The notes under the pieces were generated by a model. That model saw only the letters and a program-made list of their open reading frames with translations, did no database searches and was not told the DNA's origin. Below, piece by piece: positions 19,001 through 35,794 of a stretch of DNA of 64,000 bases (its first letter is position 1; the number at the start of each line of letters is the position of its first letter). Source of the stretch: Akkermansia muciniphila (GTDB lineage Bacteria > Verrucomicrobiota > Verrucomicrobiia > Verrucomicrobiales > Akkermansiaceae); NCBI GenBank assembly GCA_945873305.1, contig CAMCCX010000002.1:10797-74796 (forward strand), given 5' to 3'. The translations under genes were made by a program, and so were the position numbers.

Positions 19001-19445
19001 CATAAAACTCATTAAGCCGCACCGCACCATAGTGGGCGATGCCGATGTCCTGGGTGTGGATGAGATCGCAGGTGACTGGCTCATCGCCGGTATTTTCAAG
19101 TTCCACATGCCAGAACCACGCCTTGGCCGACTCTGCCAACACGAGGCGCAAGCGGAACGCCAGATCGCCCCACGCGCCGCAGGCGACCATGCCGCGGCCA
19201 AAAGTCTGATAGGACGCGGGACTGCCAGGACCTAGCAGGGGAATCGACTCCACCGTATTCCCAAGACGGCGCAGGTAGATGTTCGCCGGGCCGCCCTCCG
19301 CTTCGTTGCCGAGAAATACATTCAGCATGATGTCGCCGCAATCCGCCCGCCGGATGGAGCCGTTGGCATTCAGTTCGAAACTCATGCCAGAGGGACTGGC
19401 GGCGCGGAATGGAAAAACAACAGGCTGCGTTTCGTGGGGGCTCAT
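16071..19445 (-). CDS. GH94 glycoside phosphorylase, most like 1,2-beta-oligoglucan phosphorylase
   Basis: YSGGGWGTRDVCQGP, YGHGDWNDSLQP, REIGIMYMHAHLRY, GWRVYSSGAG; ~1124 aa fits the recalled SOGP subfamily size. Confidence 0.8.
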   Translation of the reverse strand: MSPHETQPVVFPFRAASPSGMSFELNANGSIRRADCGDIMLNVFLGNEAEGGPANIYLRRLGNTVESIPLLGPGSPASYQTFGRGMVACGAWGDLAFRLRLVLAESAKAWFWHVELENTGDEPVTCDLIHTQDIGIAHYGAVRLNEFYVSQYVDHAPLDHAAKGVAVASRQNQAMGGSCPWTVIGSLGNAVGYATDALQFNGLSTRAGGTPGALADGLPGARLQHEHSLVAIQDESVVLEPGAKSQRGFFGWFEVDKPTATSADDICWIDAALALPEAVCPPWLEEIAGDRPAQSLFTAAGLLESFDLDEAEIRDLFGGDQRHTEREEGQLESFFSGRQSHVVLRRKELKVLRPHGHLLRSGGSLTPDESALTSTAWMSGVFHSMVTQGHVSINRFLSTCHSYLGLFRSHGQRVFVEFDGSWVLLGVPSAFEMSPDSCRWIYKHKGGLIEVVSSAPADRHELGLGLKVLKGEAVRFLVSHHVALNGDDGSSSVPVRYQLDGSTAFVRAMPDSDVGRRFPDGGFLVGPAEGTRVESVGGDELLFADGVSRSQPFLCFVTAPSNGAGLVMRGRLVDEVAGQPGHFWDSIASGLKITAPQENLLGPAAERAGEIFPWFIHNALVHYLSPRGLEQYSGGGWGTRDVCQGPVELLLALGRFEQIRDLLCRVFRQQNADGDWPQWFMFFERERNIRPGDSHGDIVYWPLLALAQYLSATGDSSVLDESLPYFHPDGDAAAERATIWQHVERALDLIRRRVIEGTSLAAYGHGDWNDSLQPAKPDMRERLCSSWTVTLNYQTCVALAAAFRHLGNAGRAGEFEAMAARILEEFQRVLIVDDVLAGLAYFHEGGKTEHLLHPRDGTTGLSYSLLPMIHAIINDMFSPAQAAAHLGIIREHLLGPDGAHLFDRPMAYHGGLQTYFQRAESASYFGREIGIMYMHAHLRYCEALAHFGDAEGFFRALCQLNPIAIRELVASATPRQANCYYSSSDAAFADRYEAFSDYDKVGRGEISLEGGWRVYSSGAGIGVRLIMQCFLGLRLEKSALVVDPVIAPDLDGLTACLDLAGHSLEVIYRTGKTGRGPVAIDLNGTLLEFSREVNPYRPGAVRVGMDDLVRRLTGTGDRLTILLG

Positions 19446-19522
19446 GGCCGTATGGTGGGGTATTTCGGGGAGGCCTGTCCACCCCAAGCCGAGGTGATCG
19501 GGAGCGCTGCAAATCAGGCCTC

Positions 19523-20558: not shown

Positions 20559-23500
20559 ATGAAAACACGAACACTTCAATTCCAGATCGCGGCCCTCTGC
20601 GTGGGCGGACTCGCGGCATCCACCCTGCTCGCACAAGCGGACATCATCATCACCGAGGTCAACTCGAACTCCGCTGGAGGCGACTTCTTCGAACTCCACA
20701 ACACCGGAGCCTCCGCCGTGGATCTCACCGGTTGGAAATGGGACGATGACTCCCTGACTCCCTCATCCGGCGCCACCTTCGGCAGCATCTCCATCCCCGC
20801 AGGCGGCGTGCTCGTGGTGAGCAATGGAACTACCGGAACCGAGGCCGCGTTCAAGACCGCTTGGAATCTCACCGGCGATGTCAGTGTGGTAGCCACCGGC
20901 GGACCCGGACTGGGCGGCAACGACGCCGTGATCCTTTTCGATACGGCTAACAACGTCATCGCGTCATTCAACTACAAGAGCGCCGCGTTCACCGCCAATT
21001 CCATCACGCTGCAACCCTTCGCGCGCCCCGGCGCAGCCGCCCCGCTCGGCGGCCATGCCGGCCCCTCCGCCGGTTCCGCCTTCGGGGATGCGGTTTCCGC
21101 CGTGTGGGACGGAGTTTCCAACGCCAGCCCGGTGTATGTCCCGGCAGCCGTCGGAAGCCTCAATGTCCGTTCGCAATCCGGATCCATCACGAGCATCGGC
21201 TCTCCCGGCACTAACGGACTTTTCCCGGTCGCCTACGTTCCTCCGACTCCCGCCGTCATCACTCCGGATGCCATGGTGGTTCCGGCGGGTGAACTCCGCA
21301 TGCGGAAAATCTCATCGCTGAGCCTCTTCGGATCGGAGATCTCTTCCTACGATGCGGCCAGCAAACGGATGTTCGTCACGTCCAACTTCGGCCTCCAGAT
21401 CGTGGACGCGAGCAATCCCGCCTCGCCGCAGTTGCTCAGCATCGTGGATTTCAAAACTCCAGCGATCGGCCTCAACAGCAACGACGTCACCAGCGTGGAC
21501 GTCCACAACGGCAAGGTCGCCGTCGCCGTACCTAACACCACCAAGGACCTTCCTGGCCACGTTGTTTTCCTCAATGCCGCCGATGGTTCATTCATCAGCA
21601 AGGTGCAGGTCGGCGTGCTTCCCGACAGCCTCACCTTCACCCCGGACGGCACCAAGGTGCTCACCGCCGACGAAGGCGAAATGCTTACAGGAGGCACCGA
21701 CCCGGCCCCCGGCTCGGTGACCATCATCGATGTATCCAACATCGACACTCCCGTCGCCACTGTCGTCGGTTTCACCTCATTCGATGCCAGCGCCGCCGCA
21801 CTGAAAGCCGCGGGTGTCCGCATTTTCGAAGCCAGCCCGGGTGTGCTCAAGGCACCCTCCGTGGACTTCGAGCCCGAATACGTCGCGATTTCAGCGGATG
21901 GCACCAAGGCCATGGTCACCCTGCAGGAAGCCAATGCGGTCGCCCTGTTGGACATCGCCTCCGCCACCTTCACCTCCATCGTTCCTCTAGGAGAAAAAGA
22001 CTATAGCACTCTGCTAGCGGACTTCAGCGATGCTGACGGCGGAGCCAACCTTGCCACCGGCAGGCCGGTCTTCGGTCTCTACATGCCGGACGCCATCACC
22101 TCCTTCAGCGCGGGTGGAAACACCTACTACATCACCGCCAACGAAGGGGATGACAGAAACGACTTCCTCACGGAAACCACCACCGTCTCCAACGCCGGCT
22201 ACGTTCTGGATCCCACCGCGTTTCCAGCCGCCGCCGCTCTCAAGGCCAACACCAGCTTGGGCAAGCTCGTCGTTTCCAACGCACCAGGCCTGCGCGGTGA
22301 TACCGATGGAGACGGCGACATCGACCGGATCCTCTCCTACGGCGGACGCTCGATCTCGATCCTCGATTCCACAGGAACACGCATCTATGACAGCGGTGAT
22401 CTCCTCGATCAGAAACTGACCGCCATCGGCACGCCCTTCTTCGATGACGGTCGCAGCGATGCGAAGAGCATCGAGCCCGAAGGCGTGACCACCGGCGAGA
22501 TCGACGGCCGCACCTATGCTTTCGTCACCCTCGAACGCGCCCGCAGCGTGGCCGCCTTCGACGTCACCAATCCCGCCGCCGTCACCTACGCCGGACTGGC
22601 AGCCAACGCCACCGACGCAAATCCGGAAGGCATCACCTTCATCTCCAAAGCCGACTCACCTAACGGCCAACCGATGATCGCGGTGACCAATGAAACGAGC
22701 AACACGCTCACCTTCTATTCGGTAGCCCCCTACACGCTGCAAGTCCTCCACCTCGCCGACGCCGAGGCCGGCCTGCTAGCCTCGCAGACCGCGCCGAATC
22801 TCGCCGCTCTGGTGGACGCCTTCGACGGAAACTATCAGAACACGCTGATTCTCGCCGGTGGTGACAACTTCATCCCGAGCCCCTTCCTGAACGCAGGAAC
22901 AGACCCGGCGCTCAATGCGGTTCCTTCCATCGGAAAAACCGCCTTCGCCCGCCCGGACATCGCCATTCACAACGAAATCGGCGTGGAAGCGTCCGCCATC
23001 GGCAATCACGAGTGGGACCTCGGCACCGCCGTCTTCACCGACGCCATCCGCCCGGACGCCCCGTGGATCGGAGCGCAGTTCCCCCACATCTCGCTGAACC
23101 TCGACTACTCCGCGGACAGCGCCGCCAACGGCCGCTACGTGGATGTCCCGCTCAACGGAACCACCAGTCTGGTGCCCGAGTCCTCGGTGAACAAAAGCAA
23201 ACTCGTGCCCACCGCTGTCATCACCAAGGGCGGCCAGAAAATCGGCCTTGTCGGCGTGACCACCCAGCTCATCGAAACCATTTCCTCGCCGAGCGGAACC
23301 GAAATCAAAGGTTTCCCCACCGGAGCGGGACCGAACGGCGAGATGGATGACATGGACCTGCTCGCCTCTCAGATCCAGCCCTACATCAACGAACTCGCCG
23401 CGGAAGGTGTGAACAAAATCGTGCTGATGGCCCACCTCCAGCAGATCGCCAACGAGCAGCTGCTCGCCACCAAGCTCAGCGGAGTGGACATCATCCTCGC

Positions 23501-25085
23501 CGCCGGATCGAACACCCGCCTTGGCGATGTGGATGACGTGGCTGTCGCCTTCGCCGGACATTCCGCCGATTTCGCGAACACCTATCCGCTCGTCACCGCC
23601 GGCACCGACGGCAAGCCGACTCTCATCGTCAACACCGACAACGAGTTCACCTATCTGGGCCGGCTCGTCGTGGACTTCGACGCCTTCGGCCAGATCATCA
23701 CTCCGGAGCTGACAGACCGCGTTGCTGAAAACGGAGCCTACGCCTCCACCGCCGCCAACGTCGCCGCCGCATGGGGCGTGTCCGAAGCCAGCCTCCCCAC
23801 CACGGCATTCGCCGCAGGCACCAAGGGAGCGAAGGTCAAGGCCATCACCGATGCCGTGCAAGGCGTCATCAGCCTCAAGGACGGCACCATTTACGGCATC
23901 ACCAACGTCTATCTGGAAGGCGAGCGCTCGTTCGTCCGCAGCGAGGAAACCAACCTTGGTGACATCACCGCGGATGCGAATTCGAACGCCCTCCGCGCGA
24001 TCATCGGCGGCACCGCCCCCATCGTTTCCTTCAAGAACGGCGGTGGCATCCGCGCCCAGATCGGCGCGGTTTCCAGTGCCGGTGGCAGCGCCGTGAAACT
24101 CCCGCCGCCAGCCAATCCCGCCGTCGGCAAGCCTCTCGGCGGAGTCTCCCAGCTCGATATCGAAAACGCACTGCGCTTCAACAACAAGCTCATCGCCTTC
24201 GACACCACGCCCGCAGGACTCAAGGCATTGCTCGAACACGGCGTCGCGTCGTGGCCGAACCAAGGCCGCTTCCCGCAGATCGGTGGTGTCGCCTTCGCCT
24301 GGGACTCGTCGCTTCCCGCCAACAGCCGCGTCCTCACCATCTCGCTCATCGGCGAGGACGGTCTGCCATCCGCCGCGATCTATCAAAACGGGGCCGTGGT
24401 TTCCAACGCACCGGCCACGATCAAGGTGGTGACGCTGAATTTCCTCGCCAACAACGGCGACGGCTATCCAGTGAAGGCCAACGGCGAGAACTTTCGTTAT
24501 ATTCTAGCGGACAACACGCTCGGACCGGCGCTTGACGAAAGCACTGACTTCACCGCCGCCCCGCAACTCCCGGTCAACGCCGTGGGTGAACAAGCGACGC
24601 TCGCCGCCTACTTCAGCTCGAAGCACCCGACGGCCGGCACCGCCTACAACACCGTCGACACCGCCGCCGCGCTGGACCTCCGCATCCAGGGCACGGCTGT
24701 CCGCTCGGACACGGTCCTGCCCTACACCGGCGCGCAGGCATGGACGCTCAATGCGTTCTCGCCCGGCATGCTCGCCATCGGTCGCAGCCCGAGCCTGATG
24801 CTCACCCAGCCGGACCTCGCTTCGGCCGTGGGGGCGACGCGCACGGCGGGACAAGCCGACGTGACCTCGAACCCCTCCGCCTTCAGCCTCTACACCGCCG
24901 GTTCCATCCAGGACCTGCGCGGCACCGGGAACCTGCTCGTTCAGGCCGAGGGAGAAAACGTGACACTGAGCCTGCCGGTTCAGAAGTCCTCCAATCTCGG
25001 GGAATGGGAATCCGCCGGCCAACTCGACATCACGTTCCCGAAGACCGAGGACAAGGAATTCTATCGCCTCGCTCTCCCCCAGTGA
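20559..25085 (+). CDS. Secreted multidomain phosphatase: lamin-tail domain + choice-of-anchor I propeller + 5'-nucleotidase/metallophosphoesterase + C-terminal domain
   Basis: Signal peptide; IIITEVNS...FFELHN...DLTGWK (LTD); EPEYVAIS, ITANEGDDR, SIEPEGV (choice-of-anchor I); LQVLHLAD, GGDNFIP, IGNHEWD, RSEETNLG, KNGGGIRA, GRFPQIGG (5'-nucleotidase). Confidence 0.85.
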   Translation: MKTRTLQFQIAALCVGGLAASTLLAQADIIITEVNSNSAGGDFFELHNTGASAVDLTGWKWDDDSLTPSSGATFGSISIPAGGVLVVSNGTTGTEAAFKTAWNLTGDVSVVATGGPGLGGNDAVILFDTANNVIASFNYKSAAFTANSITLQPFARPGAAAPLGGHAGPSAGSAFGDAVSAVWDGVSNASPVYVPAAVGSLNVRSQSGSITSIGSPGTNGLFPVAYVPPTPAVITPDAMVVPAGELRMRKISSLSLFGSEISSYDAASKRMFVTSNFGLQIVDASNPASPQLLSIVDFKTPAIGLNSNDVTSVDVHNGKVAVAVPNTTKDLPGHVVFLNAADGSFISKVQVGVLPDSLTFTPDGTKVLTADEGEMLTGGTDPAPGSVTIIDVSNIDTPVATVVGFTSFDASAAALKAAGVRIFEASPGVLKAPSVDFEPEYVAISADGTKAMVTLQEANAVALLDIASATFTSIVPLGEKDYSTLLADFSDADGGANLATGRPVFGLYMPDAITSFSAGGNTYYITANEGDDRNDFLTETTTVSNAGYVLDPTAFPAAAALKANTSLGKLVVSNAPGLRGDTDGDGDIDRILSYGGRSISILDSTGTRIYDSGDLLDQKLTAIGTPFFDDGRSDAKSIEPEGVTTGEIDGRTYAFVTLERARSVAAFDVTNPAAVTYAGLAANATDANPEGITFISKADSPNGQPMIAVTNETSNTLTFYSVAPYTLQVLHLADAEAGLLASQTAPNLAALVDAFDGNYQNTLILAGGDNFIPSPFLNAGTDPALNAVPSIGKTAFARPDIAIHNEIGVEASAIGNHEWDLGTAVFTDAIRPDAPWIGAQFPHISLNLDYSADSAANGRYVDVPLNGTTSLVPESSVNKSKLVPTAVITKGGQKIGLVGVTTQLIETISSPSGTEIKGFPTGAGPNGEMDDMDLLASQIQPYINELAAEGVNKIVLMAHLQQIANEQLLATKLSGVDIILAAGSNTRLGDVDDVAVAFAGHSADFANTYPLVTAGTDGKPTLIVNTDNEFTYLGRLVVDFDAFGQIITPELTDRVAENGAYASTAANVAAAWGVSEASLPTTAFAAGTKGAKVKAITDAVQGVISLKDGTIYGITNVYLEGERSFVRSEETNLGDITADANSNALRAIIGGTAPIVSFKNGGGIRAQIGAVSSAGGSAVKLPPPANPAVGKPLGGVSQLDIENALRFNNKLIAFDTTPAGLKALLEHGVASWPNQGRFPQIGGVAFAWDSSLPANSRVLTISLIGEDGLPSAAIYQNGAVVSNAPATIKVVTLNFLANNGDGYPVKANGENFRYILADNTLGPALDESTDFTAAPQLPVNAVGEQATLAAYFSSKHPTAGTAYNTVDTAAALDLRIQGTAVRSDTVLPYTGAQAWTLNAFSPGMLAIGRSPSLMLTQPDLASAVGATRTAGQADVTSNPSAFSLYTAGSIQDLRGTGNLLVQAEGENVTLSLPVQKSSNLGEWESAGQLDITFPKTEDKEFYRLALPQ

Positions 25086-25150: not shown

Positions 25151-25709
25151 TGTCGGGGTCCGGGAATTGTGACGAAATCAACCCAGAAAACAATTGCGTC
25201 GGTTGAAGGGGAATTCTGTTGGCTGTCACTGGATAAGAAAACCCCAAAGAGCTTGATGAATGGCTAATCCTTACCAACCCGATGTGGTTTAACGGGATTT
25301 CTCATGCCATCTCGACCTAAGGCATCCAATGGCACACGCACTCACAAGAATCGTGCAGCCAACCAGACTGACTGCCCCGATCAGGGCGCAGACATTTTTG
25401 ATAATTTCAAACATTTTACTCAGACTTATGGATTTAACTGGCAGTTGATGCGATAATGGAGCGATTCCGAATCATTTGCGCGACGATAATCATCATCCAT
25501 GGAATCATGGGAAAATGTCGCGAGCAAACTTTCGAAATAAAAACTACCGACTCACGATCCAGCACACTATGCAAAATCGGAACATCTCCTCCGGGTTGGA
25601 AGTCCGTATTTGATTCTGTCGGCAGACTCCGTATCCCGCGTGCCAGCAAGACGCCCTTATGCGACATCCTTCAGAAACACACCCCCCTGAGAAGCCATAC
25701 GAACCAGTC

Positions 25710-26666
25710 ATGAGCGGCGTTGTTCGGCGCGAGTCATTCGAGGATCTGGCGGGCTGCATGAAGGATTATTTCCAAATCGATGCCGTCCAGTTGGAGTCGG
25801 GAGACTTTCAAGGGCAAGTCGACTTCATCGCCACGAAGTGTTTACTGCTCTACCGCGAGAATTATCCACTTCGCACCCACCTAGAGGGCGAGTTGCTAGG
25901 AAACCGATTTGGATTTTCAATACCACTTCTCACCGCCGAGGCGAGGTTTTTAGGCGAAATAGTCGATGACAACAGGATCTCGTCGAGCATTACAGGAGAA
26001 TCCTTTGATCACATGATGGAGAGCGGCTATCAGCAGATGATACTCCTGATAGATTATGCCAAATTGCTGCAAATGGCCGAGCATATATCTCTGCCGGAGG
26101 CGTCCCTCAAGGCTCTCTTGCTGGGCAGGAGAAAAAAAACCCTTCAATCGAACCACCATGACATCCAGAGCATCCGGGAGATATTCGTTCCGATGCTGAA
26201 TGCCGCACGCCAGGGCAATCTGAACATCAGCGCGGATCAGTTTGAGAAGGTGATTTTTGACTCCATTCTGCCGGTGCTCGACGGGAGTGAACACGATTTG
26301 GACCGGGGCCCCGCAGCCATCACGGTGCACCGCGCATTGGAATTGGCTCGCAGCATCACCGGACCCGTTTGCATCTCCGACCTCTGCATGGTGCTCAACG
26401 TCAACCCCAGGACTCTCCATAAAGCCTTCATCAAGATCATGGGAATGCCTCCATACCAATTTTTTCAAAAGCGCAGACTGAGCCAAGCTTACCAGATGTT
26501 GCTGAATACCGATCCGAGGGAATTCCACGTCACCGACATCGCTATGCGACTAGGGTTCTCTGAGCTCGGCAGATTTTCCGTGCAATATCGCGGATTGTTT
26601 GGCGAGAGCCCTTCAGAAACCCTCCGCCGTTTCCGGAAGTGCACTGTCGTCGTGCCCAGTTTCTGA
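25710..26666 (+). CDS. AraC-family transcriptional regulator (EutR-like)
   Basis: C-terminal double HTH (RTLHKAF...GMPPYQF; VTDIAMRLGFSELGRFSVQYRGLFGESPSETLR); visibly lower GC than flanks. Confidence 0.9.
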   Translation: MSGVVRRESFEDLAGCMKDYFQIDAVQLESGDFQGQVDFIATKCLLLYRENYPLRTHLEGELLGNRFGFSIPLLTAEARFLGEIVDDNRISSSITGESFDHMMESGYQQMILLIDYAKLLQMAEHISLPEASLKALLLGRRKKTLQSNHHDIQSIREIFVPMLNAARQGNLNISADQFEKVIFDSILPVLDGSEHDLDRGPAAITVHRALELARSITGPVCISDLCMVLNVNPRTLHKAFIKIMGMPPYQFFQKRRLSQAYQMLLNTDPREFHVTDIAMRLGFSELGRFSVQYRGLFGESPSETLRRFRKCTVVVPSF

Positions 26667-27461: not shown

Positions 27462-28916
27462 CTGCCGTCCCACAGGCTGGACGTGACGAGTCCTGAGCCT
27501 TGATTTTGCAAGGCGTCGAGAGGTTTTTGGCGGAGTGCCGATTGCGAGTTTTTTTACGGGAGGTTGATATATCCTTTGGATTACGCGACGATGCTGTCCC
27601 ATGAGATCATGTTCTGATAGGCGCAAATCCCGACAACCATGCGGTGTTGAGCGCTCCGATCACTTTGAATCGCCCGGATGCCGTCCCATAGGATTTCAAT
27701 AAAGCCAGTAGGTCGATCCGCTCCCACAACGCCGAGCGCGTGACGGCAAACAGCCGCGTGAAGCTATGCCCCCATGCCGAAAGGTGTGCCATGAACCGCA
27801 GCAGCACATACACCAGCAAGGCCGTGTAAACCTGCCATCTCACCGCGTTGGCGCTGTGACCGAGGAAGCTGCCGAGCTTGAGGCTCTGCTTGACCTGTTT
27901 GAAGAACACCTCGATGTCCCAGCGGCGGCGATACAGGTCGCACACGGAACGCGGGCTCCACTCCATGTTGTTCGTGATGAAGACCATCACCCGCCACTCC
28001 CCGTCCACTTCCACCCAGGCCTCAACACGCCGAAGCTTCATCCCCTTGTGCTTTCCTTGCAGCGCGATGACCTGATCCTTGATGATGTTCTCGTGGCCCT
28101 TGGTGTGATGTTTGACCACCCGGAATTTCATGTTGTCCTTGGCCCGGGTGACCCACCAGACGCCGTGCTGGTCAAGGTCGGAGAGGTGGTCGAAATCCAC
28201 GTAAGCCTTGTCGAACAGGACGATTTCGCCCGGCAGGATGGTCGCGCAGACCTCGCGGGCGCGCTTGTTGTCGTGCTGGCCGGCGGTGTCCACGATGGCG
28301 AAGGACGGCAGGAAACTGTGCAGGTCGAGCCGCAGATGCATCTTGGCCGCCGCCTTGCGCCTGCGGTGTTTGGCCCAGTCCATGCAATTGGCCACCAACT
28401 GGATGACCGTCGAGTCCACCGCGTGGATCCTGACCTTGAAGCGCCGCAGCAAGCCCTTGCCCTTGCGCCCCGCCACGAAATCCGGACTGGCGTGCTGGAG
28501 ATGGCCGAGCACCGACCAGAACAGTTTTTCGGCAAACTCCGCGTTGCGCTCCTTGTTGGCGTTGGAAAGACCGTTCCTGGATGGAGGCGTCACGCCGAAG
28601 CGCGCCAGGACTCCCGTTTTGAGTCGGAGCCAGTCACAGACATCGTTGAGTCCCATCGCGTGGGAAAGCTGGGCGAAGAGCATCGCCGAAAGATGGCTCA
28701 CCACGCTGAAGGTGCGGGCTTTGGCTTCCACGCCGGTCTCCAGGGCGTGGCGGTTGATCATTCCGCGAGGAATGAGGTTGAGCATTTGCTTGAGGACGAC
28801 CACATTGGCCCGGGCTGGTGTAGTTTTGTTCATAACACCCTACCGAGTGGCAGGAATTTCAACTCAACACCAGCCCGCTTTTCCGCTCCAAGCTAAGCCT
28901 TCCTGTGGGACGGCTG
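27462..28916 (-). mobile_element. IS4-family insertion sequence (~1455 bp)
   Basis: Terminal inverted repeats CTGCCGTCCCACAGG (27462-27476) and CCTGTGGGACGGCTG (28902-28916), 1 mismatch, flank a DDE transposase; no target-site duplication visible. Confidence 0.9.
27607..28833 (-). CDS. IS4-family DDE transposase
   Basis: AVDSTVI, LFDKAYVDF, WWVTRAK, YRRRWDIEVFFKQVKQ (YREK motif). Confidence 0.95.
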   Translation of the reverse strand: MNKTTPARANVVVLKQMLNLIPRGMINRHALETGVEAKARTFSVVSHLSAMLFAQLSHAMGLNDVCDWLRLKTGVLARFGVTPPSRNGLSNANKERNAEFAEKLFWSVLGHLQHASPDFVAGRKGKGLLRRFKVRIHAVDSTVIQLVANCMDWAKHRRRKAAAKMHLRLDLHSFLPSFAIVDTAGQHDNKRAREVCATILPGEIVLFDKAYVDFDHLSDLDQHGVWWVTRAKDNMKFRVVKHHTKGHENIIKDQVIALQGKHKGMKLRRVEAWVEVDGEWRVMVFITNNMEWSPRSVCDLYRRRWDIEVFFKQVKQSLKLGSFLGHSANAVRWQVYTALLVYVLLRFMAHLSAWGHSFTRLFAVTRSALWERIDLLALLKSYGTASGRFKVIGALNTAWLSGFAPIRT

Positions 28917-29031: not shown

Positions 29032-30990
29032 ATGAAAATCGACATTGTGACGGATACCTTCGTTCCTGATGTGAACGGAGTGGCGATGACTTTGGGACGG
29101 CTGACGGACGGCCTGCGCCAACGGGGACACCGGGTGCATGTGATTCACACGGGAGTCTCGGCCAAAACGGGAGAAACCTGCGTCGCCGCCGTCCCGCTTC
29201 CCGGATACAAGGAAGTGCGCGTGGGCCTGCCGAAACCTTTCGAGCTCAAAGCCCGCTGGTTGAAGAGACGCCCGGACGCGATCTACGTCGCCACGGAAAG
29301 CCCGTTAGGAAAGTCCGCGCTCAAGGCAGCCAACGCGCTGGGCATCCCGGTGGCCTCCGGATTCCACACGAACTTCCACCAATACATGGCGCAATACGGC
29401 ATGGGCGGATTCCACCCGATGGCGATGGCCTATCTGAAAAATTTCCATCAGCGCGCGGACTGCACGCTGACGCCCTCGCGGGACATGGTGGAGCGACTCG
29501 GCAACGAGGGCTTCGAAAACGTCCATCTGCTAGGACGCGGCGTGGATACGGACTTGTTCGCCCCCGGGAAGCGTTGTGAATCCCTCCGCGCCCACTGGGG
29601 CGCACGGGCGGCCACACCGGTCGCGGTGATGGTCGGCCGGGTGGCGGTAGAGAAGAACTTCGAGTTGGCGATGAAGACCTTCGAGCAAATGCGCCAGGTC
29701 TTCCCGGACGTGAGGTGCGTGGTGGTCGGCGACGGTCCCTTGCGTGAAAAACTCGCCGTGAAATTCCCATGGGTTTGTTTTGCCGGTGTGCAAACCGGCG
29801 AGGAGCTCGCCAGGCACTATGCCTCGGCGGACGTGCTGGTCTTTCCCAGTGAAACAGAAACCTTCGGCAACGTGCTGTTGGAAGCGATGGCCAGCGGCCT
29901 CGCCACGGTGAGCTTCGACTACGCCGCCTCGGCGCTGCACGTGCGGGCGGGCGAAAACGGATTCAAGTCGGCCAAGGGCGACTCCGCCGGATTCATCCGC
30001 CACGCGGTGGACGCGCTTTCACTGCGGACGGACGACAAGCTGCGTGAAGCCGCCCGCGAAACCGCGGAATCCCTGGGATGGGACCAAGTGGTGGAGGAAT
30101 TCGCGCGCAGGCTCGCGGAGATCTCGGGAACCGCTGAAGATGTCCCCGCACCCCGGCCGAAGAAATCGAAGCGCCCCAAGTTTTCCTGTCGCACGGTCTT
30201 CATCTCGGACATCCACCTCGGCACACCTGATAGCAAAGCGGATGAAGTCGTGGAATTCCTCAAGCACATCAAGTGCCGCAAGCTGGTCCTCAACGGCGAC
30301 ATCATCGACGGCTGGGCGCTGAAACGCGGCGGGCGCTGGACATCGCGCCACAGCCGCGTGATCCGCAAGGTGATTAAGATGACCGAGCAAGACCACACCG
30401 AGGTGATCTACCTGCGCGGGAATCATGATGAGATCCTCGAGCGCTTCCTGCCGATGGCGTTCGGCAGGATCCGATTGACCAAGGAACACATTCACACCAC
30501 GGCGGCGGAAAAACGTTACCTCATCGTGCACGGTGACGGCTTCGACAGCGTCTCCACCAACCACAAGTGGCTCGCCTCGCTCGGGGCGGTGGGCTACGAT
30601 TTCCTGCTGCGCGTGAACCGCTTCTACAACCACTACCGGGCGTGGCGCGGCAAAGAGTATTTCTCCCTCAGTAAGCGAGTGAAGGCCAAGGTCAAGTCCG
30701 CCGTTAGTTTTGTAGACCGCTACGAGGAACTTCTCCAGGAGCTGGCCCGCCACCGGAAATGCGACGGCATCATCTGCGGTCACATCCACACGCCCGAAGA
30801 CAAACAGGTGGGCGCGATCCACTATCTCAACTCGGGCGACTGGGTGGAGAGCCTCACGGCCATCATCGAGCATCACGACGGACGGATGGAACTGGTGCGG
30901 CATGCCGGGTTCATCGAGAGCCTGAAGCGCGACGGACAGTCCGAACCGCGGGCGGAGCAGGCTTCCCTGCAATCCGCTTGCATGATCTAA
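29032..30990 (+). CDS. Fusion: GT4 glycosyltransferase (Agt-like glycolipid synthase) + LpxH/PlcP-like metallophosphoesterase
   Basis: N-half: IVTDTFVPDVNGV, PDAIYVATESPLG, FHTNF, FPSETETFGNVLLEAMASG. C-half: FISDIHLG, NGDIIDGW, GNHDE, VHGDGFD, ICGHIH, YLNSGDWVES. One continuous ORF. Confidence 0.85.
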   Translation: MKIDIVTDTFVPDVNGVAMTLGRLTDGLRQRGHRVHVIHTGVSAKTGETCVAAVPLPGYKEVRVGLPKPFELKARWLKRRPDAIYVATESPLGKSALKAANALGIPVASGFHTNFHQYMAQYGMGGFHPMAMAYLKNFHQRADCTLTPSRDMVERLGNEGFENVHLLGRGVDTDLFAPGKRCESLRAHWGARAATPVAVMVGRVAVEKNFELAMKTFEQMRQVFPDVRCVVVGDGPLREKLAVKFPWVCFAGVQTGEELARHYASADVLVFPSETETFGNVLLEAMASGLATVSFDYAASALHVRAGENGFKSAKGDSAGFIRHAVDALSLRTDDKLREAARETAESLGWDQVVEEFARRLAEISGTAEDVPAPRPKKSKRPKFSCRTVFISDIHLGTPDSKADEVVEFLKHIKCRKLVLNGDIIDGWALKRGGRWTSRHSRVIRKVIKMTEQDHTEVIYLRGNHDEILERFLPMAFGRIRLTKEHIHTTAAEKRYLIVHGDGFDSVSTNHKWLASLGAVGYDFLLRVNRFYNHYRAWRGKEYFSLSKRVKAKVKSAVSFVDRYEELLQELARHRKCDGIICGHIHTPEDKQVGAIHYLNSGDWVESLTAIIEHHDGRMELVRHAGFIESLKRDGQSEPRAEQASLQSACMI

Positions 30991-30997
30991 AATCTTT

Positions 30998-32710
30998 CTA
31001 TTTGAAAAGCACGTCCACCCCCATCGCGGACTTGCGGAGGAACTTGGGCATCGCCGCAGGATCACGCGGACGCAGGGCCCGAAAGACAAATCCGGCCAGA
31101 TAGAGGATGAAAAACCGGTCCACCCAGCGATAGCCGCGCTTGCGCCGCAGCAGAATTCCTGCCGCCATCGCAAGCGTGCGGCGTTTCACGGGAAATGGCT
31201 CGAAGGAAACCTTGATCCGGTAGCGCTGGCGTTTTTCCTTGGGCCAACGCAACTTGTAAGCGGCCTTCCCGGCGCGGATCCGCCCGGCGACGGATTCGTC
31301 AAACGGCAGGAAATAATAGCGGCGCGCCAGCAGGACGAGATGGAAGAAATCGCCCATGTGCTCGATGTCGTCCGCCGGAAGTCCGGCTTCGCGCGCCAGC
31401 GAGATCATCCGCGGGAACAAGGCCGCGGCCGCCTCGCCACCCGACAAGGCGGCTTCCGGATCACTAACAAAAAGCCACATGACCTTGCGCACGCCGTGAT
31501 TGATGAAAAGCGAGTCCCAGTAAACATGCAGCAATGGCGGTATCCGGACGCGCCGGAAAAACAGCTTCTGCCTGGCGAAGTCGCGGATATAGAGAAGCTC
31601 TCGAATCACGGTATCGGCGTGATCGAGAAGCTCCACCGCCGCGAACGCCCGCTCCGGTCCGAGCAGGGCTTCCACCGCTGAATCGGCGGATTTCCCGTGG
31701 CGGAAGACGGTGATGGCGGCCTCCGTGTTCAGCCGGATCCAGATGTCCCGGCCAGCGGATTCCAGATAGGCGCGCCGCCGGAAACGATGCCAGCCACCAG
31801 TCTGGCACCACACCGAAATTCCCACGACGTTTTCCACTTGTGAGAGTTCCCGCGCGAAGCGTTCGCAATCCCAGCCGATGAACGACGGATACTCGCCCGC
31901 GCCCTCATACTCCCGCCGGGCCTGCAGTTCCAACAGCTTGCGCTGCTTCACCCGGAAGAACGCGCGGTTGAGCGGGAGATAGCGGAAAAAATCGCTCTCA
32001 CCGTGTTTCATCGAAACGATTAGATTGGGCGAGTCGAGCCCCTCCAGCGTCCTTTCCAGCGTGCCCCGGTGCCAGATCAAATCGCCGATGCGGTGGGCCC
32101 CCACCGTCCACGTCCGGAAGATCAAATCCTTGCCGCGGCGTTCGAACTCGGGCAGCAGGGCCCGCAACAAGCGGTTTGCCTCGCCGGCATTGCGCAGGTG
32201 GATCCGCGTCCGGATCGGATCCTGCACGTCGTTGCCATCGCTCTCGCCGATGCGCAGGATCAATCCGGCAAGCTGGGGGAAATCACTAAGAATCCCCCGG
32301 ACCAGACCCACATAGTAAGCTTCCAACTCCGCCGGGTTCCCGCCCATGACCAGCGACAAGGCGGGCGTCATCGGCACCACATCGGTCGTTAGATAGACCT
32401 TCAGCCCGAACTCGCCGTGCAGCATGTCGAAGAATCCGGTGAATTTTCCGCGCAGGAAATCAATCCGATCCGCCACCTCCGGTTCGTGCAGCGGATGAGG
32501 AGCGAGGTGCGCCAGATCATCCAACGTAACCGCGTTGTATCCTTGCGCGGAGATCTGCCGCGCGAATTCCCGAAGCTCTTCCCCGATCGCCGCCCAGTCG
32601 TCCGGACTCGCATCGAGCAAGTCCATGAAAGAAATCTTGGACCAGTTGACCCGCATCCGGCCGCAGCCGCGAAAAAACGGGCCGATCGCATCGATGAGGA
32701 AAAGCTCCAT
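30998..32710 (-). CDS. Uncharacterised TIM-barrel-like protein, distantly GH67 alpha-glucuronidase-like
   Basis: Clean ~570-aa ORF convergent with the fusion gene; GH67 resemblance comes from my own motif alignment only. Confidence 0.6.
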   Translation of the reverse strand: MELFLIDAIGPFFRGCGRMRVNWSKISFMDLLDASPDDWAAIGEELREFARQISAQGYNAVTLDDLAHLAPHPLHEPEVADRIDFLRGKFTGFFDMLHGEFGLKVYLTTDVVPMTPALSLVMGGNPAELEAYYVGLVRGILSDFPQLAGLILRIGESDGNDVQDPIRTRIHLRNAGEANRLLRALLPEFERRGKDLIFRTWTVGAHRIGDLIWHRGTLERTLEGLDSPNLIVSMKHGESDFFRYLPLNRAFFRVKQRKLLELQARREYEGAGEYPSFIGWDCERFARELSQVENVVGISVWCQTGGWHRFRRRAYLESAGRDIWIRLNTEAAITVFRHGKSADSAVEALLGPERAFAAVELLDHADTVIRELLYIRDFARQKLFFRRVRIPPLLHVYWDSLFINHGVRKVMWLFVSDPEAALSGGEAAAALFPRMISLAREAGLPADDIEHMGDFFHLVLLARRYYFLPFDESVAGRIRAGKAAYKLRWPKEKRQRYRIKVSFEPFPVKRRTLAMAAGILLRRKRGYRWVDRFFILYLAGFVFRALRPRDPAAMPKFLRKSAMGVDVLFK

Positions 32711-32811
32711 TGCCAAGGACATGGACGATCACCTCGCCGGGCATGAGTGACGAGATATCAATATTGACGGAAACGTCACACCCCGCTGACGCCGTGCGCG
32801 ATAAATTCAAA

Positions 32812-33044
32812 TCACGCGACCGCTTCAATCTGTTTATCCACGTCCTCGCGGAGGTTCTCGATGATGAAATCCTGGCGGTCGGGCGTGTTCTTGCCCATGT
32901 AGAAGGCTAGCAATTCCTTCACTCCTTTGCCCTCTTCATACTCGACGTGGTCGAGGCGCATGTCCGGGCCGATCATGAAGCTGAACTCGTCGGGCGAGAT
33001 TTCTCCGAGGCCCTTGAAGCGGGTGATCTCGGCGGCCTTGCCGA
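32812..33044 (-). pseudogene. Orphan 3' fragment (copy B) of the parE-like gene
   Basis: [20 protein letters not shown]...[10 protein letters not shown]; 32837-33044 is collinear with 33963-34170, about 12 mismatches in ~208 bp by hand count. Confidence 0.95.
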
Positions 33045-33142
33045 AAAGCTTGAGCGCATCAAGGTCTCTCCTTAGGTTTAGGTTGGGTGCCTCATCCGCC
33101 TTTGCAATCGAAGCCCCGACACCCTAGAATCCTCACACCGCC

Positions 33143-33394
33143 ATGACCACCGCAGACCTCCACGCCCATATCTGGATCGATCCCGCCCGCTGCGGTGGCC
33201 GTCCCTGCATCCGCGGACATCGCATCTGGGTCTCCATGGTGCTCGATCTCCTCGCCGACGGCCTCACGCCGCAGGAAATCATCGCTTCCCATTACCCGCA
33301 GATCACCCTGGAAGACATTCACGCCGGCATCGCCTACGGTTCCGCGATGTCCCATGAGCGCTTTGTGTCCGTCGCCTTGGAGCCCGTCGCATGA
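33143..33394 (+). CDS. DUF433 family antitoxin
   Basis: IWIDPARCGGRPCIRGHRIWV..VLDLLADG.T..EI...YP.ITLEDI.A...Y pattern. Confidence 0.9.
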   Translation: MTTADLHAHIWIDPARCGGRPCIRGHRIWVSMVLDLLADGLTPQEIIASHYPQITLEDIHAGIAYGSAMSHERFVSVALEPVA

Positions 33395-33582
33395 AATTGA
33401 AGCTCGATGAAAACCTCGGCCTGCGGGGCCGGGACATGCTCGCAGAAGCCGGGCATGATGTTTGCACCGTGCCGGAGCAGAATCTTTGCTCCGCCACCGA
33501 TGAGCAAGTTGCTGTCCGCTGCCGTTCGGATGAGCGCGGCATCGTCAATTCCCGGGAAATCACCATAAGTTGCTTACAGTAA
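33391..33582 (+). pseudogene. DUF5615 PIN-like toxin, 3'-truncated
   Basis: MKLKLDENL...GHDVCTV...ATDEQV...RGIV, then diverges and stops at 63 aa. The expected T.D.DF segment and C-terminal half are absent. Confidence 0.75.
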
Positions 33583-33611
33583 GCCGAAATGAACGTCATC
33601 CAGCGGCGATC

Positions 33612-33875
33612 CGCACTCACTTTGGATCGAAGTCACACCTACTTTGGGCCTTGCTCGCACCCACTTCGGATCGAAGTCACATCTACTTTGGGCCTTGCTC
33701 ACACTCACTTCGGATCGAGGTCACACCTACTTTGGGCATTGCTCACACCCACTTTGGATCGAAGTTACACCTACTTTGGACCTTGCTCGCACTCACTTCG
33801 GATCGACCTCGCATCTACTTTGGGTCCGACCCGCACGCACTTTGGATACGACCCGCACCTACTTCGGATCGAACT
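33612..33875. repeat. Tandem array of 12 x 22-bp units (6 x 44-bp dimers), iteron-like
   Basis: Units start at 33612, 33656, 33700, 33744, 33788, 33832; dimer e.g. CGCACTCACTTTGGATCGAAGT-CACACCTACTTTGGGCCTTGCT. Confidence 0.95.
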
Positions 33876-33928
33876 CGCGAGGACTTTGATTGAAGGCGGA
33901 CGGGCTTGAGATCGAGCAGACCGCCACT

Positions 33929-35794
33929 TCAGGCGACCGCCACCTGCACTTGCACCTGCTTGTCCACGTCCTCGCGGAGGTTCTCGATGATGAAATCCTG
34001 ACGGTCCGGGGTGTTCTTGCCCATGTAGAAGGCGAGCAACTCCTTGACGCCCTTGCCTTCCTCATACTCGACGTGGTCGAGGCGCATGTCCGGGCCGATC
34101 ATGAAGCTGAACTCGTCGGGCGAGATTTCACCGAGGCCCTTGAAGCGCGTGATCTCGGCGGCCTTGCCGAGTTTCGCCAAGGCTTTCTGGCGCTCGTTGT
34201 CGTCGTAACAGTAGATGGTTTCCTTCTTGTTGCGGACGCGGAAGAGTGGGGTTTGCAGGATGTAGAGATGCCCGTCGCGGATCATTTCCGGGAAAAACTG
34301 GAGGAAGAAGGTGAGCAGTAGCAGCCGGATGTGCATGCCGTCCACGTCGGCATCGGTGGCGATGACGACTTTGTTATAGCGCAGGTATTCGATGCCGTCC
34401 TCGATGTTGAGCGCGGCCTGGAGCAGGGCGAACTCCTCGTTTTCATAAACGATCTTGCGCGGCAAGCTGTAGGTGTTGAGCGGCTTGCCACGGAGCGAGA
34501 AGACCGCCTGCGTCTCCACGTCGCGGCTCTTGGTGATGGAGCCGGAGGCGGAGTCGCCCTCGGTGATGAAGAGGGTGGATTCCTCACGGCGCTTGTGCTT
34601 GCTGTCGTAGCGGACGCGGCAGTCGCGGAGTTTTTTGTTATGGACCTTCGCCTGCTTGGATCGCTCTCTAGCGAGTTTTTGGATACCCTTGAGGTCCTTG
34701 CGCTCGCGCTCGGCGGAAAGGATGCGCTTCTGGATCGCCTCGGCGACCTGCGGGTGCTTGTGCAGGTAGTTGTCGAGGTTGGTCTTGAGGAAATTCCCGA
34801 TGAAGGTGCGCAGCGACTCGCCGCCCGGCTCGATGGTGGCGGAGCCGAGCTTGGTCTTGGTCTGCGACTCGAACACCGGCTCGATGATGCGCACGCAGAC
34901 GGCGGCCTCGATGCCGGCGCGGATGTCGGACGGCTCGTATTGTTTCTTGTAGAATCCGCGGATGACCTGGACCAACGCCTCGCGGAACGCGGCGAGGTGG
35001 GTGCCGCCCTGCGAGGTGTTCTGGCCGTTGACGAAAGTATAGTATTCCTCGCCGCTTTCGGGCGTGTGGGTGAAGGCGATCTCGATGTCCTTGCCGACGA
35101 GGTGGATCGGCGGATAGAGCGCCTCGTTTTCCATTTCCTCGCGCAGCAGATCCAGCAGGCCGTCCTTCGAGCGGAACTTCTTGCCGTTGAAATTGATGGT
35201 GAGCGCCGGGTTCAGATAGGAATAGTAGCGGCACATCTTCTCGACGAACTGCTCCTTGTATTTCGCCTTGGCGGGGAAAATCGTGCGGTCGAGATCGAAG
35301 GCGAGGCGGGTGCCGTTCGGCGCCTCGTCGCGCCGCGGGTTCGCCATGTCCACGGTGAGCTGGCCCTTGGAAAACTCCAGCGCCTTGGTCTGGTTGTCCC
35401 GCCAGGACTGGATTTCGAAAAAGTCGGAGAGCGCGTTGACCGCCTTGATACCGACGCCGTTGAGGCCGACGGATTTCTTGAACGCCTCGCTGTCATACTT
35501 CGCGCCGGTGTTGATCTGGGCGGCGCAGTCGAAAAGTTTCCCGAGCGGAATCCCCCGGCCGAAGTCGCGCACTTCCACCCGGCCTTGCTCGTCGATGTCC
35601 ACGCGCACTTCCTTGCCGTGGCCCATGATGTGCTCGTCGATGGAGTTATCCACCGCTTCCTTGAGCAGGATGTAGAGGCCGTCGTCGGGCGAGGAGCCGT
35701 CGCCGAGTTTCCCGATGTACATGCCGGGGCGCATGCGGATGTGTTCGCGCCAGTCGAGGGATTTGATGTCGTCTTCGGTGTAGTCAGCAGCCAT
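33929..35794 (-). CDS. parE: Type IIA topoisomerase B subunit (ParE/GyrB-like, short PVC/Bacteroidota type)
   Basis: [69 protein letters not shown]. Confidence 0.9.

Follow-up and report, generated by a model that had tools for sequence, protein, structure and literature searches.

A GH67-related protein family encoded beside phosphate-uptake and phosphorus-free-lipid genes is a candidate glycolipid headgroup hydrolase

The locus described here raises the question of what a protein resembling an alpha-glucuronidase is doing beside genes for the replacement of membrane phospholipids. It lies in a 64,000-nucleotide stretch of DNA (the window; positions 10,797 to 74,796 of contig CAMCCX010000002.1, assembly GCA_945873305.1, deposited as Akkermansia muciniphila), where the gene for a 570-amino acid protein (the target) adjoins a gene encoding a GT4 glycosyltransferase fused to a plcP-type metallophosphoesterase. 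PlcP together with Agt or BtaAB is a known phosphate-stress lipid-remodelling operon type, and Agt makes monoglycosyl- and glucuronosyl-diacylglycerol (MGDG and GADG, the latter also GlcADG) (PMC4796936). An earlier note, made from the sequence alone, had proposed that the target is a GH67-like enzyme that removes the glucuronosyl headgroup from diacylglycerol (DAG) when phosphate returns. Our analysis places the target in a separate, uncharacterised family of proteins of about 570 residues, which is related to GH67 and is not GH67 itself. A role in phosphate-regulated lipid renovation is well supported, because many of the distantly related loci carry Pho or phosphorus-free-lipid genes; the family is new, and its physiological role is probably new as well.

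The gene is not a chance open reading frame (ORF). Its product is matched at E ≤ 0.001 by 594 clusters (50% identity) of a representative library, and hundreds of homologues with 62–94% identity are found in the Verrucomicrobiota. The raw ORF call extends from 30998 to 32722 on the minus strand; a start at 32710 is likely since nearly all homologues are 570 residues long and begin with MELF, so the ORF as originally read, including its start, is real. The neighbouring fusion protein comprises GT4 domains (residues 14–344) and a calcineurin-like metallophosphoesterase domain (residues 387–588), identified with Pfam and NCBIfam. Its gene ends in ...ATGATCTAA, followed by AATCTTT and then by CTA, the target stop codon on the minus strand, and the distance of 7 bp given in the earlier note is exact. 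The two genes are arranged tail to tail, a point absent from that note, and being convergent they share no transcript.

An AlphaFold model made from 45 sequences of 27–53% identity (mean predicted local distance difference test score, pLDDT, 94.1; predicted template-modelling score, pTM, 0.93) consists of a (beta/alpha)8 barrel and a C-terminal helical domain, the arrangement found in GH67. Foldseek searches of the PDB with this model gave GH67 enzymes as the best matches, namely 1GQL (E 2.6e-12; TM score ~0.5) followed by 1L8N, 1MQQ and 1K9D. GH67 chains took ranks 1–6 of the best seven matches (E 2.6e-12 to 3.3e-9); behind them came the GH138 alpha-galacturonidase 6HZF (E 5.9e-9) and then GH20 and GH84 enzymes. 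The GH67-like barrel proposed previously is therefore borne out. The three-domain architecture of GH67 is not present, as the barrel begins at residue 3 and there is no match to Glyco_hydro_67N. A first model, made from 35 close homologues (≥68% identity), had a pLDDT of 67, was least confident in the conserved active-site loops and ranked GH138, GH20 and GH89 first. It was superseded by the diverse-alignment model, the top rank moving from GH138 to GH67 with alignment diversity. Weaker similarity to xylose isomerases and tagatose epimerases (Foldseek E ~1e-5) was taken as generic to barrels.

By sequence, GH67 is reached only indirectly. The window protein alone had no match in Pfam (E ≤ 1), NCBIfam or the PDB sequences, and of the full-length profiles neither that of close members (A1) nor that of diverse ones (A2) matched the PDB significantly. 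The family is connected to GH67 only by way of P0251, which bridges the two, or of a profile extended with long relatives (A3). P0251 matches the query at 6.5e-38 (BLASTP 1e-44) and the Cellvibrio japonicus GH67 enzyme (1H41/1GQI) at 2e-8, while the A3 profile matches Geobacillus stearothermophilus AguA (1K9D) at 2e-5 in three collinear stretches, the third of which aligns to AguA residues 457–509. These alignments reproduce, with A3 directly or through P0251, all four GH67 motif pairs given in the earlier note. Pfam Glyco_hydro_67M was matched by 5 of the 35 close homologues at E ≤ 1, and only P0036 passes its gathering score (25.5 against 23.5 bits); the window protein does not qualify as a Pfam member of GH67. 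The long relatives (P0247–P0268, 750–1057 residues) share approximately residues 45–435 with the family, match Glyco_hydro_67C and Glyco_hydro_67M weakly and in one case carry a GH20b-like N-terminal domain. On these alignments they seem to form an unclassified sister group linking the ~570-residue family to GH67.

The residues invariant in alignments A2 and A3 are D7, D64, D110, R153, E156, D158, R199, W201, K235, D240, E261, Q263, E267, W301 and W307 of the barrel, and the model positions them at or just past the C-terminal ends of the strands. For those with GH67 equivalents, invariance was judged over 39–45 diverse family members. E156, in the loop past strand 4, corresponds to the catalytic acid of GH67: the motif RIGEAGG of P0251 aligns to KADSEGQ of 1GQI, the 1H41 chain carries A at the catalytic position and differs from 1GQI exactly there, and the window protein aligns in register with P0251 at E156. 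The Asp/Glu pair of GH67 (D365/E393; D364/E392), which reportedly activates water (Nurizzo in 2002, Golan in 2004), is represented by D240 and E267 in both the alignment of A3 to AguA and that of P0251 to GlcA67A; the segment gDFF of A3 aligns to MDFQ of AguA 1K9D, and the alignment of P0251 to 1GQI likewise places D240. The E386Q chain 1MQR scores 5 bits below wild type in the A3 profile alignment, and PDB titles name E285N (1K9E) and E386Q as studied AguA mutants. The three invariant basic residues R153, R199 and K235 align to K288, R325 and K360 of GH67, which are said (Nagy et al., in 2003) to bind the glucuronate carboxylate.

One conserved feature of GH67 is not retained. The 4-O-methyl pocket is formed in all GH67 enzymes by W152, E160, N201, V202, N203 and K283 (BhGlcA67 numbering) (PMC8056927). 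In the target N201-V202-N203 are replaced by D65-L66-A67 and the pocket lysine by R153, the aligned stretch scoring weakly when taken alone. It is this different pocket, together with the absent N-terminal domain and the unreached Pfam threshold, that sets the window protein outside GH67.

The family ranges over the Verrucomicrobiota, Leptospira, Patescibacteria and other groups. Some members are labelled "glycosyl hydrolase family 67" by NCBI (Leptospira, and metagenome-assembled genomes (MAGs) of Spirochaetes, Chitinivibrionales and Fibrobacterota), others "hypothetical" (Bdellovibrionales, Pontiellaceae, Patescibacteria and a Woesearchaeote). No characterised member was found, and a plasmid collection yielded no useful homologue. 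Full-length members occur in a reduced-genome member of the candidate phyla radiation (locus L081:8001-9716, Patescibacteria), where the gene is divergent from that of a DedA/VTT membrane protein, and in a DPANN archaeon (L083:8001-9650, Woesearchaeota). The 839-residue protein P0060 was considered as a domain fusion and rejected as an over-extended ORF.

Compared with the characterised GH67 enzymes GlcA67A (1GQI, 1GQL, 1H41) and AguA (1K9D, 1MQQ), the target has the same succession of barrel and helical domain and the same catalytic residues in collinear motifs, but the identity is only 12–14%, the N-terminal domain of ~140 residues is missing, a cationic tail is added, and the genomic context consists of Pho and lipid genes, not of xylan utilisation. 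The second-best structural match, the GH138 alpha-galacturonidase BT0997 (6HZE/6HZF), also acts on an alpha-linked uronic acid; it differs in being an 860-residue secreted enzyme for pectin rhamnogalacturonan II, and 6HZE and 6HZF gave no match in any of the PDB sequence searches. The GH115 alpha-glucuronidases share the core fold and substrate class with GH67 (PMC3879575). In the comparison with GH115 that had been advised, none of the 50 best Foldseek matches was a GH115 enzyme and Pfam GH115 was not matched, and the active-site residues of GH115 differ from those of GH67, whose set the present family keeps. GH31 enzymes are retaining. The GH31 sulfoquinovosidase YihQ and the NAD-dependent GH188 enzyme SqgA are functional analogues only: they remove an anionic alpha-linked headgroup from a DAG glycolipid or glycerol derivative (PMC13436972), but belong to unrelated families with unrelated mechanisms, serve in the catabolism of sulfoquinovose and have no known occurrence in Pho operons.

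The start of barrel strand 1 at residue 3 agrees with the lack of a signal peptide stated previously, as does the composition of the last 75 residues with the basic C-terminus, whose quoted peptide is present. These residues contain 19 K+R against 4 D+E, and a net positive tail is found family-wide (median 18 K+R against 4 D+E) together with a moderately hydrophobic stretch of ~15 residues, RFFILYLAGFVFRAL in the window protein. A segment of transmembrane grade occurs in only 10 of 82 members. The enzyme is cytoplasmic, and the tail would fit an interfacial membrane anchor.

The neighbourhoods of the close relatives gave little support for a link to lipid genes. Among 80 genome loci, all from Verrucomicrobiota, the GT4–esterase fusion adjoins only about ten relatives, with at least 72% identity, and no neighbour is common to more than 20 loci. 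A Pho or phosphorus-free-lipid gene lies within 3 kb in 8 of the 55 adequately flanked loci. One of these close relatives (L006, 80% identical to the window protein) has the order pstC-pstA-pstB-phoU (PF01895, 2e-37)-target, with a convergent GT4–esterase fusion. The conclusion drawn from the 80 loci, that linkage is not conserved and that adjacency suggests inherited synteny, was reversed by the distant members.

The distant members (27–52% identity) were surveyed in 80 metagenome loci and individual look-ups. A Pho or phosphorus-free-lipid gene lies within 3 kb of the target in 21 of 46 adequately flanked, dereplicated loci, and such linkage is found in 11 of 24 clusters at 50% identity. The agt/plcP linkage that the earlier note had proposed to check thus recurs among distant members from many lineages and is absent from most of the close verrucomicrobial ones. 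Genes for plcP-type esterases, 42–59% identical to the window esterase domain, adjoin the target in L106, L129 and L149, and in L149 (target 44% identical) the GT4–esterase pair is convergent with the target as in the window. In L124, L132 and L140 a divergent response regulator–kinase pair is followed by target-BtaA (DUF3419, 1e-105)-methyltransferase-esterase, while L116 has the order btaA-btaB-target; the window esterase domain is 58–59% identical to the stand-alone esterases of the btaA-btaB-esterase operons. The target directly follows phosphate-uptake or phosphate-regulatory genes in L006 and in two further loci, L094 (pstS-pstC-pstA-pstB-phoU-target-DAGK_cat/YegS_C kinase, with gaps of 2 and 8 bp) and L086 (phoB-phoR-phoU-target); these are gene orders, and control by PhoB is putative. 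Kinases of the DgkB/YegS type adjoin the target in three unrelated loci, within the pstSCAB-phoU operon in L094, with a 4-bp overlap in L150 and divergently in L117. Other lipid-related neighbours are a gene for an OlsF-like acyltransferase downstream of the target in L121, an adjacent Lgt-like gene in L165 and L135 and, in Leptospira tipperaryensis, a fatty-acid desaturase and an EamA transporter preceding the target.

A second type of fusion recurs in these loci. Directly upstream of the target and on the same strand, at least 10 dereplicated loci encode a protein of ~800 residues (gaps of −3 to +44 bp), and in two further loci it is divergent at ~155 bp. Its C-terminal half is a GT4 domain whose best NCBIfam match, like that of the window GT4, is N-acetylglucosaminyl-phosphatidylglycerol synthase, far below the cut-off. 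The N-terminal half has the PHP motifs HVHS..S, TDHN and GGSDDH, recognised by eye, with weak Pfam matches (E 0.004–0.009); the PHP assignment had no match in PDB sequences and is unconfirmed. The PHP-like–GT4 fusion may do the same job as PlcP-Agt by means of another esterase fold. We know of no description of such a fusion.

The association is concentrated next to the target. After dereplication at 95% identity, 150 loci were available for distance statistics. GT4 genes number 16 at 0–0.5 kb from the target, 13 at 0.5–2 kb, 5 at 2–4 kb, 2 at 4–6 kb and none at 6–8 kb, and the corresponding counts for esterases are 12, 0, 3, 0 and 0. Comparable or greater amounts of sequence were surveyed in the more distant bins (140 kb at 0–0.5 kb, 377 kb at 4–6 kb and 339 kb at 6–8 kb). 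With several gene orders and two unrelated esterase folds, the arrangements are mutually independent and recur beyond inherited synteny.

To our knowledge, no glycosidase has been described as part of PlcP-Agt or PlcP-BtaAB operons. The present loci resemble these operons (PMC4796936) in that the target adjoins plcP-type esterases, Agt-like GT4 proteins and btaA-btaB, sometimes under pst-phoU or a PhoBR-like pair, and differ in that GT4 and esterase are fused here and that the second, PHP-like–GT4, fusion type occurs. No enzyme that takes the headgroup off GlcADG was found in a search of the literature, in agreement with the earlier note.

These results lead us to propose that the target is a cytoplasmic GH67-related glycosidase that cleaves an anionic sugar headgroup, such as alpha-glucuronic acid, from Agt-type glycosyl-DAG during phosphate-regulated renovation, a reading to which we assign a probability of roughly 0.45. 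The analysis shows the fold, the conservation of the catalytic residues and the linkage of the genes; hydrolase activity, mechanism, membrane binding, lipid substrate and the direction and timing of action are inferred. By analogy with GH67, an alpha-linked sugar would be hydrolysed with inversion, E156 in the loop following strand 4 acting as the general acid, D240 and E267 activating water, and R153, R199 and K235 holding the anionic group of the sugar. The enzyme, probably bound peripherally to the membrane, would be an accessory to membrane-lipid renovation. Cleavage of the headgroup would regenerate DAG, which could be glycosylated again, serve BtaAB as the precursor of betaine lipid or be phosphorylated by a DgkB-like kinase, and in this way the enzyme would control the turnover and composition of the surrogate lipids. 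A headgroup glycosidase that regenerates DAG is the simplest reading. It accords with the DgkB-like, BtaAB and GT4 neighbours, which all use DAG, and with the sulfoquinovosidases of GH31 and GH188, the only analogous enzymes known, being members of other families and none being known for GlcADG. The family would have been recruited repeatedly into Pho-regulated clusters that make phosphorus-free lipids. The wider proposal, that the family is the missing hydrolase for the headgroup of alpha-glucuronosyl-DAG or another anionic glycosyl-DAG in a phosphate-regulated cycle interconverting phospholipids, DAG and phosphorus-free lipids, widespread from Verrucomicrobiota and Leptospira to Patescibacteria, is doubtful at this stage.

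The timing put forward in the earlier note, action when phosphate returns, is weakened by the gene orders: in many lineages the target comes straight after the synthesis genes or pstSCAB-phoU or overlaps them, and overlapping starts and stops with synthesis and uptake genes imply co-expression during starvation. Such co-expression looks futile for a pure "eraser" and is one of several points that weigh against a headgroup glycosidase. The pair in the window is convergent. Of the 55 close verrucomicrobial loci, 47 show no linkage and have neighbours that, by eye, are housekeeping genes (nuoB/C, recF, galE); the Patescibacteria and Woesearchaeote members sit among unrelated neighbours; and the btaAB-plcP operons of L124, L132 and L140 had no GT4 match within the 8 kb retrieved. 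The sugar may not be glucuronic acid, given the replacement of N201/V202/N203 by D65/L66/A67, and a sulfonate or a phosphate is an equally possible anionic group. Since biosynthetic operons commonly include a hydrolase of their own product, as in those for glycogen, cellulose and alginate, the enzyme could plausibly have a homeostatic or editing role.

Expression during starvation makes sense if the target is instead a helper in phosphorus scavenging, removing a sugar from a phosphorus-containing lipid or glycoconjugate so that a PlcP- or PHP-type esterase can release the phosphate. The substrate would be a glycosylated phosphatidylglycerol headgroup, a phosphoglycolipid or a phosphate-bearing sugar, and the basic triad would bind phosphate, not carboxylate. 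The position in or right after pstSCAB-phoU (L094, L006, L086), the co-operonic phosphoesterases of two unrelated folds, the btaAB-plcP operons in which no GT4 was detected and the best NCBIfam match of the linked GT4 to N-acetylglucosaminyl-phosphatidylglycerol synthase, far below the cut-off as it is, all favour this. We nevertheless consider it unlikely, as no substrate of this kind is known to occur generally in these phyla, a DAG product would suit the DgkB-like kinase neighbours just as well, and the related enzymes of GH67 and GH138 have uronic acids as substrates. It is quite unlikely that adjacency is meaningless in this genome, the synteny having been inherited within one verrucomicrobial clade and the protein having a housekeeping role unrelated to phosphate. 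The pair is convergent, linkage among the 80 genome loci is confined to relatives of at least 72% identity and an insertion sequence and a toxin–antitoxin insertion have rearranged the locus, but the convergent pair recurs in L149 at only 44% identity, L006 adds pstCAB-phoU upstream, and the association extends, in differing gene orders, to 11 of the 24 deep clusters.

The GH67 homology and the structural similarity to GH138 could also point to a cytoplasmic alpha-glucuronidase or alpha-galacturonidase for imported oligosaccharides, that is, classical GH67 carbon catabolism in a coincidental neighbourhood. AguA of G. stearothermophilus is intracellular, and the relatives of 800–1000 residues, some with GH20b-like N-terminal domains, resemble polysaccharide-degrading carbohydrate-active enzymes. 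This is highly improbable: the neighbours in 169 loci from metagenomes and the genome collection provided no transporter, xylanase or polysaccharide-utilisation context, the pocket for the 4-O-methyl group is not retained (PMC8056927), a strong enrichment of Pho and lipid genes is seen beside the target, and the cationic tail is conserved. The recycling of a soluble glycoside has similarly little to recommend it. The PHP-like–GT4 or GT4–esterase fusion would then be a synthase–phosphatase pair that builds a small glycoside on a phosphorylated acceptor, in the manner of the sucrose-phosphate or mannosyl-phosphoglycerate pathways, and the GH67-related enzyme would hydrolyse the solute. Several two-step solute pathways use such an architecture, in which a GT4 is joined to a phosphatase-type domain, the GT4 domains have weak NCBIfam matches to MshA, BshA and sucrose-phosphate synthase, and the basic triad could bind a carboxylated aglycone. 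The 58–59% identity of the window esterase domain to the esterases of btaA-btaB (lipid) operons, the OlsF-like, Lgt-like and DgkB-like neighbours, which are all lipid enzymes, and a tail that looks membrane-directed argue against a solute.

The replacement of phospholipids by phosphorus-free lipids is a major adaptation to phosphate scarcity in aquatic and soil bacteria, and only its forward steps (PlcP, Agt, BtaAB, OlsBA/OlsF) are known. The family provides a concrete candidate for the turnover of glycolipids such as glucuronosyl-DAG, widely distributed, with predicted catalytic residues and with culturable hosts in Luteolibacter, Haloferula and Leptospira. If the proposal of a headgroup glycosidase is correct, it would define a new GH67-related glycoside hydrolase family with a role outside polysaccharide degradation. 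The analysis also highlights the PHP-like–GT4 fusions as possible PlcP-Agt analogues. The features are collected in Table 1.

Table 1 Features of the target gene, its product and linked genes. Coordinates are window positions unless a locus (L) is named.
Feature	Coordinates	Strand	Remarks
GH67-related enzyme gene	30998..32710	-	570 amino acids; stop codon 30998-31000; ORF call, homologue lengths, AlphaFold, Foldseek
(beta/alpha)8 barrel, residues 1-315	31766..32710	-	Model secondary structure; strand 1 from residue 3
C-terminal helical domain, residues 316-495	31226..31765	-	Model helices; beginning resembles start of GH67 C-terminal domain
Cationic tail, residues 496-570	31001..31225	-	19 K+R vs 4 D+E; hydrophobic stretch; candidate interfacial membrane anchor
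E156 (RIGESDG)	32243..32245	-	Counterpart of GH67 catalytic acid, E292 in C. japonicus GlcA67A, E285 in G. stearothermophilus AguA
D240 (GESDFF)	31991..31993	-	Counterpart of GH67 D365/D364; candidate base; invariant
E261...E267 (LELQARREYEG)	31910..31930	-	Counterparts of AguA E386 and E392 (E393 in GlcA67A); invariant
Basic triad R153 (32252-32254), R199 (32114-32116), K235 (32006-32008)	32006..32254	-	Aligned to GH67 K288, R325, K360; invariant
GT4 glycosyltransferase (~29032-30150) fused to plcP-type metallophosphoesterase (~30190-30990)	29032..30990	+	652 amino acids; Pfam, NCBIfam
Convergent intergenic spacer	30991..30997	.	7 bp, AATCTTT; read from sequence
Upstream non-coding region, presumed promoter region of target	32711..32829	-	Sequence; metatranscriptome contig
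PHP-like–GT4 fusions	L104:2401-4914, L121:1514-4003, L135:5509-8004, L166:5218-7998, L102:5441-7846 (-), others		Commonly overlap target start
DgkB/YegS-type soluble lipid kinases (DAGK_cat + YegS_C)	L094:9709-10680, L150:9701-10591, L117:1568-2632 (-)		Three unrelated loci

In the presumed promoter region no sigma-70 consensus match was found on the minus strand. The sparse metatranscriptome contigs lie over the beginning of the fusion gene and over the 5' end of the target with its upstream region (a weak contig at 32508-32845); they may include DNA and are weak evidence for transcription. The sequence was found in DNA metagenomes of lake, sediment and marine origin only.

Upstream of the target the 3' end of a parE/gyrB-like gene is duplicated (32830-33044 and 33956-34170; 215 bp, 93.5% identity). 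The intervening insertion (~33045-33955) contains a DUF433 gene (33143-33394, +), a short DUF5615/PIN-like ORF identified by eye (33391-33582, +) and a 44-bp tandem repeat array (33612-33888). In L001, a 90% identical relative, the parE end lies 123 bp upstream of the GH67-like gene without the insertion. On the other side, just upstream of the GT4–esterase fusion gene, an IS4/IS5-type DDE transposase gene (DDE_Tnp_1 and DUF4372; 27607-28833, −) could have displaced the native promoter of the fusion gene. Farther along, 4 kb from the fusion gene, a 1508-residue protein (20559-25085, +) with lamin-tail, choice-of-anchor-I and 5'-nucleotidase C-terminal domains could be a secreted phosphoesterase, and an AraC regulator gene (25659-26666) lies between the two; with these genes the window neighbourhood may be a phosphate-stress island. 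The SOGP/GH94-type glycoside phosphorylase (1138 residues; 16071-19487, −) is unrelated to the target.

Among the distant loci, the Lgt-like protein (prolipoprotein diacylglyceryl transferase family, 431 residues) is paired with an unannotated 772-residue protein in L165 (2649-4967, 5722-7017) and L135 (9786-14112, −). The lake-water MAGs L001, L056 and L057, which encode close homologues, bear the titles "Akkermansia muciniphila" or "Prosthecobacter debontii"; by gene content and habitat they resemble freshwater Akkermansiaceae or Luteolibacter relatives, and the species titles are probably classifier artefacts.

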